Source of the DNA: Escherichia coli
Lineage (GTDB): Bacteria > Pseudomonadota > Gammaproteobacteria > Enterobacterales > Enterobacteriaceae
Length of the DNA stretch: 64,000 bases
Reading direction: 5' to 3' (one strand)
Assembly: GCF_050920415.1 (NCBI RefSeq)
Contig: NZ_CP169309.1
Positions 1 through 43,623 of this stretch are shown here, in pieces; the stretch's first letter is position 1; each line of letters begins with the position of its first letter. The notes under the pieces are model-generated. The model saw nothing but the letters and a program-made list of their open reading frames with translations, had not been told where the DNA came from and did not search any database. A program made the translations under genes and the position numbers.

Positions 1-1877
1 GGTGGCAGAGCGTAGCCGGAACAGCCAAGGAATACCCCGGTGCTCGCTGTGCGAATACCCATTTTGCGACCACAGGTCGGGCAGTCGATGCTGGTCAGAA
101 CCATCTGGTTCGGGCGCATACCCCCCTCTTCGGGATCTTTTTCAGCTTTATCTAACTGCTGGGTGAAATCCGAGAAGAAGTGATCCAGTACAGCTTTCCA
201 CTCTGCTTCGTGATTTGCCACCTGGTCGAGGCTGTTTTCCATCTGTGCGGTGAAGTCGTAGTTCATTAACTCACGGAAATTCTCTTCCAGGCGATCGGTG
301 ACGATTTCGCCCATTTTTTCCGCATAGAAACGACGATTTTCTACTCGCACATAGCCACGATCCTGAATGGTCGAAATGATCGACGCGTAGGTAGACGGAC
401 GACCGATACCGCGTTTTTCCAGCTCTTTAACCAGCGATGCTTCACTGAAACGGGCTGGCGGCTTGGTAAAGTGCTGGGCTGGTGTCAGTTCAACGAGCGT
501 CAGAGCATCGCCTTTATCGACTGCCGGTAAGATACGATCTTCATCGCCTTTACGCAGCGCAGGCATCACTTTCGTCCAGCCATCAAAGCGCAAAATACGA
601 CCGCGTGCTTTCAGGCGGAAATCGCCCGCACCAACGGTCAGCGTCGTGGAGTCATATTTCGCTGGGGTCATCTGGCAGGCAACGAACTGACGCCAGATTA
701 ACTGGTACAGTTTCTGCGCATCTGCTTCCATATCCTTCAGCGATTCCGCCATCACATTGACGTCAGAAGGACGAATCGCTTCGTGCGCTTCCTGTGAGTT
801 TTCTTTGCTGGCGTACTGATTCGGACTTTCCGGCAGATATTTCTTACCAAAATTATCGCTGATATAACCGCGAACCATATTTACTGCGTCCTGACTCAGG
901 TTGGTGGAGTCGGTACGCATGTAAGTGATATAGCCTGCTTCATACAAACGCTGCGCCATCATCATGGTTTTTTTCACGCCAAAACCAAGACGGGTGCTGG
1001 CAGCTTGTTGCAGCGTAGAGGTAATAAAAGGAGCGCCAGGTTTACTGGTTGTCGGTTTGTCTTCACGTTCCAGCACGCTGTAGCGCGCTTTTTCCAGCAG
1101 ACTTACCGCAGCCTGAGTTTGTTCTTTGTTGACCGGGCGGAACGGTTTGTCGTTCTGATGAGTCACCTGCAACGCCAACGCATCACCAGATGGCGTGGTC
1201 GTGCTGGCATCGACTTCCCAGAACTCTTCCGGTACGAACGCTTTAATTTCACGCTCACGCTCGACCACCAGGCGGACCGCCACCGACTGCACACGACCTG
1301 CAGACAGACCACGAGCGATCTTTTTCCACAGCAGCGGCGAAACCATATATCCCACCACGCGGTCCATAAAGCGACGCGCCTGCTGGGCATTAACACGATC
1401 AATATTCAGCTCACCTGGTTTGTTAAATGCCTGGCGGATCGCGTTTTTAGTAATTTCGTTAAACACCACTCGGCTATAGCGCGCATCATCACCACCAATC
1501 ACTTCCCGCAGGTGCCATGCAATGGCTTCCCCTTCGCGGTCAAGGTCGGTTGCGAGATAGATGTGGTCTGCTTTTTCAGCCAGTTGTTTCAGTTCAGAGA
1601 CGACCTTCTCTTTACCAGGCAGCACTTCATAGTGCGCCTCCCAATTGTGCCACGGGTCAACCCCCATACGGTTGACGAGAGCGCCACGTTCATCCTTTTT
1701 AGGCTTTTTAGCCGTCTTGGTGGAGGTAGAGTCGGCACTCTTTTTGGCAGCTGAGCCACTGGTCGGCAAATCGCGGATGTGACCGACGCTGGATTTCACC
1801 ACGTAGTCACTACCCAGATACTTGTTGATCGTTTTGGCTTTTGCCGGGGACTCAACGATGACAAGAGCTTTACCCAT
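1..1877 (-). CDS. topA: DNA topoisomerase I, N-terminal ~625 codons; 3' end runs off the window
   Basis: Reverse complement of 1851-1877 reads ATG GGT AAA GCT CTT GTC ATC GTT GAG (MGKALVIVE), the TopA N-terminus; frame stays open to position 1; synteny with yciN and sohB. Confidence 0.88.
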
Positions 1878-31220: not shown

Positions 31221-31920
31221 TGTTTTTTGGACTCCCTCATTATAATTACTGGTATTAACCAGCATGTGTAATCCCGGATTGGGACCCTGCACAGGCTCGG
31301 AGACTTTCTGCTGTCAGGTTACTTTATCGTTACGGATTGCTATCACCGACTTTATTTATTCTGGTGATTCAGACGATCACCTTATGTCGATTCGTACTGT
31401 GTCTCCCCTGTCGAGACACATTATTCTTTTGCGACGCTCTTTAATTGTTAATTATTCTCATTACCAATAAAAATCGCCTGGCGGTTGGTCGGAAAGTACC
31501 AAATGCGCTTCTTACTCGCCAATACATTTTGCAAAATTGTTAAGCAATTCTCTTTTATTGACAGTGTCAGAATCTACAGCGCGCGTCCATGCTTTAACAA
31601 ACATCTTTCAATTCAATCAAATAGAGAACTGTTAAGCATGTCTATCTTTTCTGGCTATAGATTAAGTCGTGAAATACACAATAATTTAACAAACGATTAT
31701 TATTTAGCACTTTCCTCTACCAAAGGCAGTGGAATTACTAATATCATTTCAATTATTCTTCAGCAAGCCCAGGATTATGATGTGGCGAAAATAACATGAT
31801 GGTGAGGCGAAGCAGTTAAGGAAATCCTTATAACTAACTGTAATTTCAGAGGAATATTCTTACCTATTCCTTTTGCCTTTGCTTTTGATAACTGCGCGGG
31901 AACAAAGTAAAAATAATGAC

Positions 31921-31948
31921 GAAAAAACGGAGCATGTCAGCTCCGTTT
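31921..31948 (-). terminator. ychE rho-independent terminator
   Basis: acggagc-atgtca-gctccgt hairpin followed by U-run on the minus strand. Confidence 0.7.
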
Positions 31949-31961
31949 CATTTGAAAGGAA

Positions 31962-32609
31962 TTAATTAAGCAGGCCGGGGAAAATCCCCTTAATACCAGT
32001 AACGATAAATTCAATCCCCAACGCCATCAGCAATAGCCCCATAATACGCGTAATCACGTTGATGCCGGTCTGGCGTAAAACCCGTACCAGCCACGGTGCC
32101 ATGCGGAACAATCCCCAGCAGCATAAAGCAAACAATGCAATAGCCACAAAGAAACCAAATAGATAGCTAATACTGTGATAACGCGTACCCCAGACGATGG
32201 TGGAACTAATCGCCCCTGGCCCCGCCATCAACGGCAACGCCAACGGCACCACACCAATGCTTTCACGTACCGCGGTTTCTGATTTTTCTTGCTTGTTCTG
32301 TTTATCCTCGCCAAGCTTGCCGCTGATCATCGACATCGCTATTGTCACCACCAGGATGCCACCGGCGATACGGAATGAATCAATTGATATACCAAAAAGT
32401 TGCAGAATCGTGTCGCCGAGAAAAAGCGAGATCCACAAGATAATGGCCACAGACAGGTTGGCTGTAAGGTTCGTTTTGTTTCGCGCTGCCGCTGTCTGAT
32501 AACTGGTCATGCTGATAAAGACGGGAATAATCCCTACCGGGTTGACCAGCGCAAATAACCCGATGAAAAATTTGAAGTAAACGGGAAAATCAAAAAGGGT
32601 CTGAATCAC
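31962..32609 (-). CDS. ychE: MarC-family inner membrane protein YchE
   Basis: 215-aa hydrophobic protein recognised as YchE. Confidence 0.85.
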   Translation of the reverse strand: MIQTLFDFPVYFKFFIGLFALVNPVGIIPVFISMTSYQTAAARNKTNLTANLSVAIILWISLFLGDTILQLFGISIDSFRIAGGILVVTIAMSMISGKLGEDKQNKQEKSETAVRESIGVVPLALPLMAGPGAISSTIVWGTRYHSISYLFGFFVAIALFALCCWGLFRMAPWLVRVLRQTGINVITRIMGLLLMALGIEFIVTGIKGIFPGLLN

Positions 32610-33085
32610 GGTTAGCTCCGAAGCAAAAGCCGGATAATGTTAGCCATAAATAAGGTTAAAAAGACGCGCTGACAATACGCCTTTTGACAGCATTTTTCAC
32701 CTCCTAACTACTTAAAATTGCTATCATTCGTTATTGTTATCTAGTTGTGCAAAACATGATAATGTAGCCAACAAATCATACTACAATTTATTAACTGTTA
32801 GCTATAATGGCGAAAAGCCATGCTGAAAGGTGTCAGCTTTGCAAAAATTTGATTTGGATCACGTAATCAGTACCCAGAAGTGAGTAATCTTGCTTACGCC
32901 ACCTGGAAGTGACGCATTAGAGATAATAACTCTAATGTTTAAACTCTTTTAGTAAATCACAGTGAGTGTGAGCGCGAGTAAGCTTTTGATTTTCATCGGT
33001 TAAGCAAATCATCACCGCACTGACTATACTCTCGTATTCGAGCAGATGATTTACTAAAAAAGTTTAACATTATCAGGAGAGCATT

Positions 33086-35761
33086 ATGGCTGTTACTAAT
33101 GTCGCTGAACTTAACGCACTCGTAGAGCGTGTAAAAAAAGCCCAGCGTGAATATGCCAGTTTCACTCAAGAGCAAGTAGACAAAATCTTCCGCGCCGCCG
33201 CTCTGGCTGCTGCAGATGCTCGAATCCCACTCGCGAAAATGGCCGTTGCCGAATCCGGCATGGGTATCGTCGAAGATAAAGTGATCAAAAACCACTTTGC
33301 TTCTGAATATATCTACAACGCCTATAAAGATGAAAAAACCTGTGGTGTTCTGTCTGAAGACGACACTTTTGGTACCATCACTATCGCTGAACCAATCGGT
33401 ATTATTTGCGGTATCGTTCCGACTACTAACCCGACTTCAACGGCTATCTTCAAATCGCTGATCAGCTTGAAGACCCGTAACGCCATTATCTTCTCCCCGC
33501 ACCCGCGTGCTAAAGATGCAACCAACAAAGCTGCAGATATTGTTCTGCAGGCTGCTATCGCTGCTGGTGCGCCGAAAGACCTGATTGGCTGGATCGATCA
33601 ACCTTCTGTTGAACTGTCTAACGCGCTGATGCACCACCCAGACATCAACCTGATCCTCGCGACCGGTGGTCCGGGTATGGTTAAAGCCGCATACAGCTCC
33701 GGTAAACCAGCTATCGGCGTAGGCGCGGGTAACACTCCAGTCGTTATCGATGAAACTGCTGATATCAAACGTGCAGTTGCATCTGTACTGATGTCTAAAA
33801 CCTTCGACAACGGCGTAATCTGTGCTTCTGAACAATCTGTTGTTGTAGTTGACTCTGTTTATGACGCGGTACGTGAGCGTTTCGCTACCCACGGCGGTTA
33901 CATACTGCAGGGCAAAGAGCTGAAAGCAGTTCAGGATGTTATCCTGAAAAACGGTGCGCTGAACGCGGCTATCGTTGGTCAGCCAGCCTATAAAATTGCT
34001 GAACTGGCAGGCTTCTCTGTACCAGAAAACACCAAGATTCTGATCGGTGAAGTGACCGTTGTTGATGAAAGCGAACCGTTCGCACATGAAAAACTGTCCC
34101 CAACTCTGGCAATGTACCGCGCTAAAGATTTCGAAGACGCGGTAGAAAAAGCAGAGAAACTGGTTGCTATGGGCGGCATCGGTCATACCTCTTGCCTGTA
34201 CACTGACCAGGATAACCAACCGGCTCGCGTTGCCTACTTCGGTCAGAAAATGAAAACGGCCCGTATTCTGATCAACACCCCGGCGTCTCAGGGTGGTATC
34301 GGTGACCTGTATAACTTCAAACTCGCACCTTCCCTGACTCTGGGTTGTGGTTCCTGGGGTGGTAACTCCATCTCTGAAAACGTTGGTCCGAAACACCTGA
34401 TCAACAAGAAAACCGTTGCTAAGCGAGCTGAAAACATGTTGTGGCACAAACTTCCGAAATCTATCTACTTCCGCCGTGGCTCTCTGCCAATCGCGCTGGA
34501 TGAAGTGATTACTGATGGCCACAAACGTGCGCTCATCGTGACTGACCGCTTCCTGTTCAACAATGGTTATGCTGATCAGATCACTTCCGTACTGAAAGCA
34601 GCAGGCGTTGAAACTGAAGTCTTCTTCGAAGTAGAAGCTGACCCGACCCTGAGCATCGTTCGTAAAGGTGCAGAACTGGCAAACTCCTTCAAACCAGACG
34701 TGATTATCGCGCTGGGTGGTGGTTCCCCGATGGATGCCGCGAAGATCATGTGGGTCATGTACGAACATCCGGAAACTCACTTCGAAGAACTGGCGCTGCG
34801 CTTTATGGATATCCGTAAACGTATCTACAAGTTCCCGAAAATGGGCGTGAAAGCGAAAATGATCGCTGTCACCACCACTTCTGGTACAGGTTCTGAAGTC
34901 ACTCCGTTTGCGGTTGTAACTGACGACGCTACTGGTCAGAAATATCCGCTGGCAGACTATGCGCTGACCCCGGATATGGCGATTGTCGATGCCAACCTGG
35001 TTATGGACATGCCGAAGTCCCTGTGTGCTTTCGGTGGTCTGGACGCAGTAACTCACGCCATGGAAGCTTATGTTTCTGTACTGGCATCTGAGTTCTCTGA
35101 TGGTCAGGCTCTGCAGGCACTGAAACTGCTGAAAGAATATCTGCCAGCGTCCTACCACGAAGGATCTAAAAATCCGGTAGCGCGTGAACGTGTTCACAGT
35201 GCAGCAACTATCGCGGGTATCGCGTTTGCGAACGCCTTCCTGGGTGTATGTCACTCAATGGCGCACAAACTGGGTTCCCAGTTCCATATTCCGCACGGTC
35301 TGGCAAACGCCCTGCTGATTTGTAACGTTATTCGCTACAACGCGAATGACAACCCGACCAAGCAGACTGCATTCAGCCAGTATGACCGTCCGCAGGCTCG
35401 CCGTCGTTATGCTGAAATTGCTGACCACCTGGGTCTGAGCGCACCGGGCGACCGTACTGCTGCTAAGATCGAGAAACTGCTGGCATGGCTGGAAACGCTG
35501 AAAGCTGAACTGGGTATTCCGAAATCTATCCGTGAAGCTGGCGTTCAGGAAGCAGACTTCCTGGCGAATGTGGATAAACTGTCTGAAGATGCATTCGATG
35601 ACCAGTGCACCGGCGCTAACCCGCGTTACCCACTGATCTCCGAGCTGAAACAGATTCTGCTGGATACCTACTACGGTCGTGATTATGTAGAAGGTGAAAC
35701 TGCAGCGAAAAAAGAAGCCGCTCCGGCTAAAGCTGAGAAAAAAGCGAAGAAATCCGCTTAA
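33086..35761 (+). CDS. adhE: Bifunctional acetaldehyde-CoA / alcohol dehydrogenase
   Basis: 891 aa; N-terminal aldehyde dehydrogenase and C-terminal iron-containing alcohol dehydrogenase domains; high-expression codon usage. Confidence 0.97.
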
Positions 35762-35786
35762 TAAGTAGCGCTGTCTGGCAACATAA

Positions 35787-35813
35787 ACGGTCCCTTCTGG
35801 GGCCGTTTTTTTG
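35787..35813 (+). terminator. adhE terminator
   Basis: cggtccc-ttct-ggggccg hairpin followed by seven T. Confidence 0.7.
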
Positions 35814-36063
35814 TTTTACCCAAAGCAACTTTCCCATAAACCGACAGCATTTGCCTTCATCATATTTACGGCGATGTATAACGCCTACACACAGCGATAT
35901 TGTACTTTACAGGTCACAAGTCAACGTCACTGTAAAAGCGATCTGTGAGGGGTATAGTGGCGTTAAAGAACTGTCGAGAAGGGTATATACACCGGATGAA
36001 GTGCGTAAAATGAACTGACAGGATAAAAGCGCCCTGCTCACCCTGTCAGTAAAGAAATTCTTA

Positions 36064-36681
36064 TTAATCGTGGCGATGCCTTTCCTGAATAGCCGTTAAT
36101 GAGCCGACTTCTAACGCCTCTTTATAGTGTTTGCGGCATACAGAAACGTAGCGTTCATTACCACCAATAACCACCTGCTCACCTTCGTTATAAGGTCTGC
36201 CTGCTTGATCAAGACGCAGCACCATGCTTGCTTTACGGCCACAAAAACAGATGGTTTTTAATTCAACCAGTTTGTCGGACCATGCCAGTAAGTATTGGCT
36301 GCCAATAAATAATTCACCTCGAAAATCGGTACGTAAACCATAACAAAGTACGGGTATATCGAGTTGATCTACAACCTCCGATAATTCATATACTTGTTGT
36401 CTGGTTAAAAACTGGCATTCATCAACCAGTACGCAATGAATTGCCTGCTGTTCATGTTCCGCACGAATCTCATCAAATAATGATGAATTTTGGTTAAATA
36501 ATTTTGCAGGCGATGACAAACCTATACGCGAGCTGACTTTCCCGGCACCAAAGCGATCATCAATTTCTGCCGTATATACGACAGTGCGCATGCCGCGTTC
36601 CTGGTAATTGTATGAAGATTGCAACAATGCTGTAGACTTACCCGCATTCATTGCGGAATAGTAGAAATATAGCTGTGCCAT
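36064..36681 (-). CDS. tdk: Thymidine kinase
   Basis: 205 aa; P-loop MNAGKST and C-terminal zinc-ribbon cysteines. Confidence 0.92.
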
Positions 36682-37284
36682 CAGCCACAGGCCCTCAATG
36701 ATATGAAATAAAGTTGGCTGGAGTTTATCATAATTCGTCAGTTTTTCAGCTCAACAGTATGCATAGAAGTGGTATATGCGTTCTCCCTTACGAAGCCTTG
36801 CATAATCCTTCTGAGCTATCATTACAACTGCCTCGCTTGTTATAAGCGGGTAAATGACTGCTGGTAACTATTCACAATCTTTAACCTGTTGCGCAAGTAA
36901 TAGCCCTCTGTTGACCTCCTGGAGATAGTGCAATACTAAGTCCCTGCTCTTATTGCGACTGTTCTACTTTTCATCATTCGCTTAATAGAGAATTCTCGTA
37001 AACACGACTAATACAGAAGACTGAAAGGTCGTCAGCCTACGATAATCTCCCCATAAAATGTGACATGAATCAGGAAGTTTTAACCTCACGTGCTGCGAAA
37101 TCATCGGCGCAAATAGGGCTATATGCCGCGTCTTTTCTGGCTAATTTTATGAAAAGATATTTATTGGCGGCACAAAATAAAGAACAATTTTGAATTCCTT
37201 ACATTCCTGGCTATTGCACAACTGAATTTAAGGCTCTATTATTACCTCAACAAACCACCCCAATATAAGTTTGAGATTACTACA

Positions 37285-37698
37285 ATGAGCGAAGCACTTA
37301 AAATTCTGAACAACATCCGTACTCTTCGTGCGCAGGCAAGAGAATGTACACTTGAAACGCTGGAAGAAATGCTGGAAAAATTAGAAGTTGTTGTTAACGA
37401 ACGTCGCGAAGAAGAAAGCGCGGCTGCTGCTGAAGTTGAAGAGCGCACTCGTAAACTGCAACAATATCGCGAAATGCTGATCGCTGACGGTATTGACCCG
37501 AACGAACTGCTGAATAGCCTTGCTGCCGTTAAATCTGGCACCAAAGCTAAACGCGCTCAGCGTCCGGCAAAATACAGCTACGTTGACGAAAACGGCGAAA
37601 CTAAAACCTGGACTGGCCAGGGTCGTACTCCAGCTGTAATCAAAAAAGCAATGGATGAGCAAGGCAAATCCCTCGACGATTTCCTGATCAAGCAATAA
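37285..37698 (+). CDS. hns: Nucleoid-associated protein H-NS
   Basis: 137 aa [20 protein letters not shown] with C-terminal [12 protein letters not shown]-binding motif. Confidence 0.97.
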
Positions 37699-37721
37699 TC
37701 TTTTGTAGATTACACTTGCTT

Positions 37722-37750
37722 AAAATCCCGCCATCGGCGGGATTTTTTAT
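37722..37750 (+). terminator. hns terminator
   Basis: aaatcccgcc-atcg-gcgggattt hairpin plus T-run. Confidence 0.8.
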
Positions 37751-37784
37751 TGTCCGGTTTAAGACAATTTAATAAGAATAAGCT

Positions 37785-37820
37785 ATAAAAAAACGGCGTC
37801 GATTGCTCAACGCCGTTTCG
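37785..37820 (-). terminator. galU terminator
   Basis: aaacggcg / cgccgttt stem with U-run on the minus strand. Confidence 0.65.
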
Positions 37821-37841
37821 TGGATAACACCGATACGGAAG

Positions 37842-38750
37842 TTACTTCTTAATGCCCATCTCTTCTTCAAGCCAGGCTTTAAATTCCGTGCCAAGGGTGT
37901 TATGACGAATACCGTATTCAACGAAGGCCTGCATGTAACCTAATTTATTACCGCAGTCATGGCTCTTCCCTTTCATATGATAGGCTTCCACCGTTTCTTT
38001 TTCGATCAGCATATCAATTGCGTCGGTGAGCTGAATTTCATCACCAGCACCCGGAGGGGTTTTTGCCAGCAACGGCCAAATATCCGCGCTAAGAACGTAA
38101 CGACCCACAATAGCGAGATTAGACGGCGCAACATCCGCTTTTGGTTTTTCAACCACGCCAACCATCGGTACGCTTTCACCCGGCGCTAATTCAACGCCTT
38201 TGCAATCCACAACGCCATATGCGGTCACATCAGCAACCGGTTCAACCATGATCTGGCTATGACCCGTTTCATCAAAGCGGCGGATCATCTCTGCCAGGTT
38301 ATCCTGTGACAAATCGGATTCATATTCATCCAGAATAACGTCAGGCAAAATAACAGCCACAGGTTCATCACCCACTACCGGGTGAGCACACAATACCGCG
38401 TGTCCCAGGCCTTTCGCCAGCCCCTGACGAACTTGCATAATAGTCACGTGCGGCGGACAAATAGACTGCACTTCATCAAGCAGTTGACGTTTTACACGTT
38501 TTTCCAGCATTGCTTCCAGTTCAAAACTGGTATCAAAGTGGTTTTCAATAGAGTTTTTAGATGAGTGAGTAACCAGCACAATTTCAGTAATGCCAGCCGC
38601 AATACATTCATTCACGACGTATTGAATTAATGGCTTATCGACAAGTGGCAGCATCTCTTTCGGGATGGCTTTCGTCGCCGGCAACATCCTGGTTCCTAAT
38701 CCCGCAACGGGGATAACGGCTTTTTTGACTTTCGTATTAATGGCAGCCAT
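37842..38750 (-). CDS. galU: UTP-glucose-1-phosphate uridylyltransferase
   Basis: 302 aa; motif [16 protein letters not shown]. Confidence 0.95.
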
Positions 38751-42585: not shown

Positions 42586-42670
<85 letters not shown>

Positions 42671-42704
42671 TCTCAAGCATTACATCAAAATTTGAATTAT
42701 CCCT

Positions 42705-42789
<85 letters not shown>

Positions 42790-43501
42790 TCACTTTCAAA
42801 AGTTCCTGAAATCCCCAACAAATCCACAATTAAATATTCTGCCCATGCGGGGAAGGATGAGAAGCTTCGACTAAGGTTCGACTCGAGCGCCAGCGAGAGA
42901 GCGTTGCCGCAGGCAACGACCCGTAGGGCGAAGCGCGCAGCGCTGAGTAATCCTTCCCCCACCACCATCACTTTCAAAAACCCCTGTATTCTCCAACGAA
43001 TCCGTAACTGAATATTCTGCCCATGCGGGGAAGGATGAGAAGCTTCGACTAAGGTTCGACTCGAGCGCCAGCGAGAGAGCGTTGCCGCAGGCAACGACCC
43101 GTAGGGCGAAGCGCGCAGCGCTGAGTAATCCTTCCCCCACCACCATCACTTTCAAAAACCCCTGTATTCTCCAACGAATCCGTAACTGAATATTCTGCCC
43201 ATGCGGGGAAGGATGAGAAGCTTCGACTAAGGTTCGACTCGAGCGCCAGCGAGAGAGCGTTGCCGCAGGCAACGACCCGTAGGGCGAAGCGCGCAGCGCT
43301 GAGTAATCCTTCCCCCACCACCATCACTTTCAAAAACCCCTGTATTCTCCAACGAATCCGTAACTGAATATTCTGCCCATGCGGGGAAGGATGAGAAGCT
43401 TTGACTAAGGTTCGACTCGAGCGCCAGCGAGAGAGCATTGCCGCAGGCAACGACCCGTAGGGCGAAGCGCGCAGCGCTGAGTAATCCTTCCCCCACCACC
43501 A
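42790..43501 (+). repeat. Four tandem 178-bp direct repeats (rtT region), each ending in the last ~19 nt of tRNA-Tyr
   Basis: Unit boundaries 42790-42967, 42968-43145, 43146-43323, 43324-43501; copies 2-4 near-identical, copy 1 diverged at its 5' end; each ends ccttcccccaccacca. Confidence 0.9.
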
Positions 43502-43623
43502 TCACACCCTTAAATACTCAAAACCTGTTACTTCAAGCTAATTTGCCCCGTGGCACCGCGTTTACCGGACCTACAATATCCTCCCCTATATGTCAGATAA
43601 GCGAATCACTCCGCAGCGTACCC

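Follow-up and report, generated by a model that had tools for sequence, protein, structure and literature searches.

The adhE-tdk junction of the window, by which we mean the whole 64,000-nucleotide (64-kb) stretch of E. coli DNA that was analyzed, very probably shows, in its ancestral and unoccupied state, a site in the adhE terminator hairpin at which IS4-family elements have inserted repeatedly. The absence of ISZ at this position is an ordinary IS presence/absence polymorphism that is already annotated, and a strain that lacks two K-12-specific IS elements and has kept its native adhE terminator is of little import by itself. Mildly noteworthy is what the comparison adds, namely that IS4-family elements have struck the adhE terminator repeatedly, in at least 3 independent events, and occupy it in approximately 59% of complete E. 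coli genomes. No description of the adhE terminator as an IS4 hotspot was found in the searchable literature, which contained general statements only. The result also serves as a caution that K-12 represents the derived state at adhE-tdk.

The window is an E. coli chromosomal segment, 41 kb of which are collinear with strain EC42405 in the gene order trpA...opp-ychE-adhE-tdk-hns-galU...nar. The adhE gene ends in a TAA stop codon at 35759..35761 and converges with tdk (Table 1); both genes are likewise annotated in the genomes that are 100% identical to the window. The preliminary description placed a gap of approximately 300 bp between the two convergent genes, and the gap is exactly 302 bp. 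It further stated that this spacer is occupied by the adhE terminator. A terminator is indeed present, but it fills only approximately 33 of the 302 bp, or about a ninth, and the remainder consists of a second hairpin just 3' of tdk and approximately 175 bp of noncoding DNA. This filler is 91-96% identical among E. coli, could not be aligned to the spacers of E. albertii or the divergent Escherichia, and is overlapped only by short open reading frames with TTG or GTG starts (44-55 aa for the spacer reading frames). K-12 has no annotated feature at mid-spacer, and the mid-spacer is not conserved outside E. coli. An Rfam scan of 35000..37500 at E <= 1 returned no RNA family, and the spacer thus contains no known sRNA. 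When the whole window was searched for repeats of the spacer, only chance matches of 18-24 nt appeared. The hairpin on the tdk side folds at -20.5 kcal/mol (z = -4.2), and its inner part was caught by the terminator scan; given its weak T-rich tail, it is probably the tdk terminator, and a weak one.

Table 1. Features of the adhE-tdk region in the window, and flanks of IS4 copies at other loci.
Feature	Position	Strand	Description
adhE CDS	33086..35761	+	891 aa; Pfam Aldedh + Fe-ADH + ADH_Fe_C; ORF list
adhE-tdk intergenic spacer	35762..36063	.	302 bp, between convergent genes, without mobile-element sequence
adhE intrinsic (rho-independent) terminator	35785..35817	+	AAACGGTCCC-TTCT-GGGGCCGTTT then TTTTGTTTT; terminator scan
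Unoccupied IS4-family target core	35791..35802	.	TCCCTTCTGGGG; junction analysis of occupied alleles
Noncoding filler, no recognized feature	35818..35992	.	approximately 175 bp
Hairpin directly downstream of tdk stop	36015..36049	-	CTGACAGG...CCTGTCAG then TTCATTTTAC
tdk CDS	36064..36681	-	205 aa; Pfam TK, E = 1e-65; ORF list
IS4 flank, downstream of crr			AAAAATGG[CGCCCATCGGCG]CCATTTTTTT
IS4 flank, downstream of bamD			CAAAACGG[CAGYCCTTGAGCTG]CCGTTTTTTT
IS4 flank, a further locus			AAAAAAGG[CTCCCCTAGTGGG]AGCCTTTTC
IS4 flank, K-12 native copy			ACAAACAC[CAGAACCAAGAT]GCCTATTTCG

The adhE terminator begins 24 nt past the adhE stop codon, with a stem-loop at 35785..35808 and a T-tract that extends to 35817. 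Its stem has 10 pairs (6 of them G-C) closed by a 4-nt loop and followed by the TTTTGTTTT tail, and it folds at -19.7 kcal/mol (z = -3.6). The GC-rich stem-loop and the T-tract 3' of the stop codon are thus those of an intrinsic terminator, and from this arrangement adhE transcription in the window strain should stop approximately 55 nt past the stop codon. The terminator also looks bidirectional, consisting of an A-run, a hairpin, and a T-run. A GC stem-loop between an A-run and a T-run, here abutting the adhE stop, is a feature shared with the rho-independent terminators of convergent genes. Among the matches listed, 76 of 78 Enterobacteriaceae loci have a terminator-like hairpin no more than 110 nt from the adhE stop, and 67 distinct hairpin sequences were counted across these adhE 3' ends. 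Because so many different sequences are found at a fixed position, it is the structure that is conserved and not the sequence. Several Citrobacter species carry a nearly identical stem, AAACGGTCCC...GGGGCCGTTT. In many genera a single hairpin in a spacer of 62-90 bp serves both genes, whereas E. coli has 302 bp and a second hairpin near tdk.

The preliminary description had stated that K-12 carries about 1 kb of transposase-like remnant at this junction. Alignment to MG1655, which it had proposed as a check, bore this out: the K-12 spacer is not one of 300 bp but measures 1301 bp (tdk end 1294144, adhE end 1295446), and the remnant is ISZ/insZ, a 989-bp element of the IS4 family. The MG1655 annotation at this position reads "insertion sequence: ISZ" (980 bp) together with the pseudogene insZ (b4573, formerly ychG). 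K-12 and the window are collinear but for this one insertion, and the two alignment blocks overlap by 10 bp at 35792..35801; the K-12 spacer is the sum of 302 bp, 989 bp of ISZ, and a 10-bp target duplication. Both terminal inverted repeats of ISZ are present (CAATGCCGATCAGTTAAGG.../...CTTAAGTGAACGGCATTG), and the length of 989 bp was taken from these repeats and the duplication. The annotated length of 980 bp differs because the annotation halts at the insZ stop codon, 9 bp early. One junction in K-12 reads ...AAACGGC[CCCTTCTGGG]CAATGCCGATCAGTTAAGG... and the other reads ...CTTAAGTGAACGGCATTG[CCCTTCTGGG]GCCGTATTTTTT, such that the 10-mer CCCTTCTGGG flanks ISZ on both sides, and the point of insertion falls in the adhE terminator, at its loop and inner stem. 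The window shares the locus and flanking genes with K-12 and is the exact pre-insertion target; it differs from the K-12 ISZ locus in having no element and one copy of CCCTTCTGGG rather than two.

Junction analysis of occupied alleles placed the duplicated stretches on nearly the same letters of the window. For ISZ (K-12 type) the stretch is 35792..35801 (10 bp), for IS4 in reverse orientation (EC488 type) it is 35792..35802 (11 bp), and for IS4 or deleted IS4 (B2 type) it is the homologous 12 bp. The 10-mer that is duplicated around the element in occupied genomes occurs once in the window, and the surrounding sequence of the window, AAA-CGGTCCCTTCTGGGGCCG-TTT, has the form preferred as a target. 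The claim that the spacer holds no IS remnant was upheld over the entire 64-kb window, in which blastn detected no IS4 or ISZ sequence and a regex search gave no match to IS4-type inverted repeats. A footprint, in the form of a residual second copy of CCCTTCTGGG or fragments of inverted repeats, was likewise absent from the window.

We then counted the states of this site in 5426 complete E. coli genomes, with the counts mirroring RefSeq sampling rather than natural frequencies. A genome was scored as empty when it gave a contiguous match to a 200-bp query centered on the insertion point, and the other states were scored by allele-specific queries. A 1302-bp query was unsuited to counting since pieces up to 1151 bp apart are joined and IS-bearing genomes then look full-length. 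The empty site was present in 2201 of 5426 genomes (40.6%); in the remaining genomes the 200-bp match breaks at query position 90-100. The ISZ allele (flanks plus ISZ) was present in 1883 of 5426 at 99.5-100% identity, IS4 or deleted IS4 in one orientation in 1134 of 5426, and full-length IS4 in the opposite orientation in 190 of 5426. The four classes total 5408 of the 5426 genomes, with approximately 59% occupied. Empty, ISZ, IS4 forward, and IS4 reverse could therefore serve as a four-state marker for lineage typing. A 1302-bp piece spanning the spacer was 100% identical to four complete E. coli genomes, all of them empty.

The occupied alleles differ in more than the identity of the element. 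In the O25:H4 strain 18044 the element is an IS4 reduced to 1145 bp by an internal deletion, and its target duplication, CCCCTTCTGGGG, measures 12 bp; strain 789 carries the full 1426-bp IS4 with the same position, orientation, and 12-bp duplication. EC488 has a full 1426-bp IS4 that faces the other way and is flanked by an 11-bp duplication, CCCTTCTGGGG, and this allele was also found in strain ST648 (H204). Because element, orientation, and duplication length differ, these alleles, as read from their junctions, show at least 3 independent insertions into the same 12 bp of the adhE hairpin. The hairpin thus appears usable by IS4-family transposases, judging from at least 3 natural insertions.

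ISZ and IS4 are related but distinct. At the nucleotide level their similarity is confined to the first 35 bp, which are 97% identical; the left end of ISZ that resembles the left end of IS4 is the stretch L001 3372..3406. This likeness points either to a swap of ends between the two elements or to strong conservation of the sequences bound at the ends. When translated, the two elements are collinear save for a missing internal segment. An intact relative of ISZ, 1430 bp long and 92-93% identical to it, was found on plasmid p03_3013-1; its transposase, of 446 aa, is likewise intact and shares 38.7% identity with that of IS4. By its sequence, ISZ is the p03_3013-1 element minus approximately 410 bp. 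The IS4-family transposases scored 254 and 304 bits against NCBIfam transpos_IS4_1 and contained the Pfam domains Nterm_IS4 (PF13006) and DDE_Tnp_1 (PF01609). Taken with their inverted repeats and their 10-13-bp duplications, these domains place ISZ and IS4 of the comparison genomes in the IS4 family.

Copies of these elements at other loci lie in similar surroundings (Table 1). Three of 4 IS4 copies hit the center of a terminator-type hairpin, with 12-14-bp duplications; for the fourth, the native IS4 of K-12, the AAA/TTT spacing fits and a hairpin is not clear. All 4 sites fit AAA-N18-20-TTT. The ISZ relative of p03_3013-1 is inserted in the palindrome CCCGC-TTC-GCGGG. Four of 5 other copies examined are therefore at the center of A-run/GC-hairpin/T-run terminators, which explains the hotspot at the adhE terminator, and a preference of IS4 for terminators would follow from these sites. 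IS4 (insG) copies at the adhE site in other E. coli have 11-12-bp duplications centered on the hairpin loop and its other copies occupy analogous AAA-N18-20-TTT palindromes, whereas the window has the target only, without IS4. IS4 was reportedly found by Mayaux et al. in 1984 in the attenuator terminator of pheST, with an AAA-N20-TTT consensus, and duplications of 11-13 bp are said to have been described for IS4 by Habermann et al. in 1979 and Klaer et al. in 1981. The AAA/TTT hairpin sites of IS4 agree with this consensus. They agree also with a passage of De Palmenaer et al. (2008) that speaks of "spectacular apparent insertion specificity" for some IS4-subgroup elements (PMC2266710). The adhE site offers a natural illustration of this taste of IS4 for terminators.

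A mechanism consistent with these sites would be one in which, in other lineages, IS4-type transposases cut the target symmetrically about the hairpin loop, so that 10-12 bp of loop and inner stem would be duplicated on either side of the inserted element. At least 3 such insertions took place: the K-12 type received ISZ, the B2 type IS4 or its deleted form, and the ST648 type IS4 in reverse. The recurrence probably comes from a preference of the IS4 subgroup for an A-run, a GC-rich palindrome, and a T-run, and nothing special about adhE would be needed.

The ancestral state was assessed in species-representative genomes scanned with Tdk, which gave at least 80 Enterobacteriaceae loci. Among the matches listed, adhE and tdk are convergent in 78 of 80 Enterobacteriaceae loci, the spacers range from 62 to 1227 bp (median 130), and the adhE terminator is uninterrupted in nearly all of the 78. 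As Escherichia outgroups the matches listed offered E. albertii and a pair of divergent genomes that bear the label E. coli, but neither the E. coli type strain nor any genome under the names E. fergusonii, E. marmotae, or E. ruysiae. In E. albertii the homologous hairpin is uninterrupted and the spacer measures 326 bp, and the two divergent genomes (approximately 94% identical in adhE) have uninterrupted spacers of 302 and 316 bp. The spacers of Citrobacter and Salmonella are also uninterrupted and contain the homologous hairpin. The uninterrupted form is ancestral because the outgroups are empty and because the duplication in each IS allele can be derived only from single-copy sequence. With the target in single copy in the window and the outgroups empty, the proposal in the preliminary description that this strain represents the uninterrupted ancestral state is sustained.

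The few interruptions outside Escherichia are of related kinds. Enterobacteriaceae bacterium LSJC7 (L079) has a 372-bp ISZ-like miniature element in the adhE terminator, at spacer positions 37..408, with ISZ-type inverted repeats (CAATGCCGTTCACTTAAG... / ...CTTAACTGCTCGGCATTG) and the 10-bp duplication CGCCATATGG on both sides. In this other genus, the homologous terminator was thus hit independently. Decayed elements of approximately 0.8-1.1 kb interrupt the adhE hairpin in Cedecea colo (L086) and a soil MAG (L028). Their ends are IS10-like, CTGAG/CTGAT (CTGAGAAATCCTCAG..., CTGATGGACCCTCAT...), and the element of Cedecea colo has an imperfect 9-bp duplication, GCTTCGGCG/GCCTCGGCG. Insertions at the adhE terminator number at least 5 independent events: ISZ, IS4 twice, the ISZ-like miniature element, and the IS10-like elements in 1 or 2 further genera. 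A longer spacer of another kind was seen in Enterobacter sp. BIGb0383 (L043), where approximately 480 bp of a 585-bp spacer follow an intact adhE terminator and resemble an extra small coding region.

The occupancy of approximately 59% could be read as the product of selection, with the split terminator altering the adhE 3' end or convergent tdk transcription and the window allele being less fit or niche-specific. We consider this reading unlikely. On the adhE side the insertion does remove most of the stem together with the U-tract, as the adhE-proximal (left) junction of the occupied K-12 allele is left with a 4-bp stem and no T-tract (-10.4 kcal/mol, z = -0.6). However, at the far junction the element end and the duplicated target rebuild a hairpin and T-tract (-9.2 kcal/mol), and termination is probably only displaced; K-12 adhE transcripts would probably read through ISZ, in the insZ sense orientation, before terminating. 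Although the sequenced genomes that bear each of the three independent insertions number in the hundreds to thousands, high counts can arise when an allele is inherited clonally in lineages that have been sequenced heavily, target specificity alone accounts for the recurrence, and 40.6% of the genomes and all Escherichia outgroups recovered are still empty. A wider proposal, which we regard as improbable, is that the adhE terminator is an IS4-family landing pad across Enterobacteriaceae and that occupied alleles have risen by advantageous rewiring of the adhE 3' end or of convergent adhE/tdk transcription. If true, the difference between empty and occupied would be a functional polymorphism and not a neutral one. 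These insertions raise the question of whether splitting a terminator between convergent genes affects expression at all.

A further alternative is that the site is secondarily empty, an ancestor of the window strain having lost ISZ or IS4 by precise excision across the direct repeats or having imported an empty allele by homologous recombination. Either event, excision or recombinational replacement, would be scarless, and the locus has seen exchange. Some empty alleles carry flanks that are 99% identical to K-12, and the E. coli B strain C3029 is empty whereas K-12 is occupied; we take empty and occupied alleles to coexist in the same phylogroups, of which C3029 and K-12 would be an example. 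Empty alleles on K-12-like flanks, together with this coexistence, indicate that the locus has recombined. Related backgrounds include both occupied and empty alleles, and EC488, with its reverse IS4, shares 99% identity with the window over the adhE-side flank. The greater divergence of the tdk-side flank, compared with the adhE side, points to recombination at the locus. Yet the window shows no footprint, the genomes with spacers 100% identical to it are all empty, as is every Escherichia outgroup recovered, and the apparent case of both states in one strain, ATCC 8739, in fact involves two different strains. Secondary emptying adds a step that nothing demands, and we judge it improbable. 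That the short spacer is an assembly artefact, a repeat-collapsed IS having been dropped, is improbable in the extreme: IS elements commonly cause assembly breaks, but the junction is an exact single-copy target with the hairpin intact, 2201 complete genomes share the empty structure (four match the window at 100% identity across 1302 bp), and a collapse would not precisely delete one copy of the duplication. An ancestral site that was very probably never occupied in this lineage remains the preferred reading.

The difference between the two flanks was consistent across comparisons, with the tdk/hns side (35993..38207) more divergent between strains than the adhE side (31704..35801). For the spacer portions of the window and EC488, identity was 95.9% on the tdk side and 99.0% on the adhE side. 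The corresponding values for two assemblies named ATCC 8739 were 99.0% and 99.9%. From the tdk-side divergence, a recombination boundary may lie at the adhE terminator or close to it.

The two ATCC 8739 assemblies also differ in the state of the site. NC_010468.1 (ATCC 8739 "Crooks") contains a 989-bp ISZ between adhE and tdk (L090 3141..4129), annotated as a frameshifted IS4 family transposase, whereas NZ_CP043852.1 is empty, and the two genomes differ by 58 kb. Precise excision was considered for this pair and rejected, as the flanks differ at 4 of 3100 and 29 of 3111 bp and the Tdk proteins differ. The assemblies represent different strains, one of them probably mislabelled. Strains W and B have already been tabulated as lacking ISZ (PMC3032704). 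Table 3 of the same paper, on the E. coli W genome, gives no ISZ' for Crooks, contrary to the sequence of NC_010468.1 (PMC3032704).

Two other observations were made in the window. The K-12 element IS5U (1195 bp, insH21), located between ychE and oppA, is likewise absent; its K-12 flanks overlap by 4 bp on the window at 31704..31707, a single-copy IS5 target, making it the second K-12-specific IS missing, within 4 kb of the ISZ site. Farther along, tandem tRNA-Tyr genes are present at 42586..42670 and 42705..42789, and after this pair comes a tandem array with units approximately 178 bp apart, which correspond to the RtT sRNA repeats annotated in EC42405; the region 42586..43505 is an ordinary tyrTV-rtT locus.
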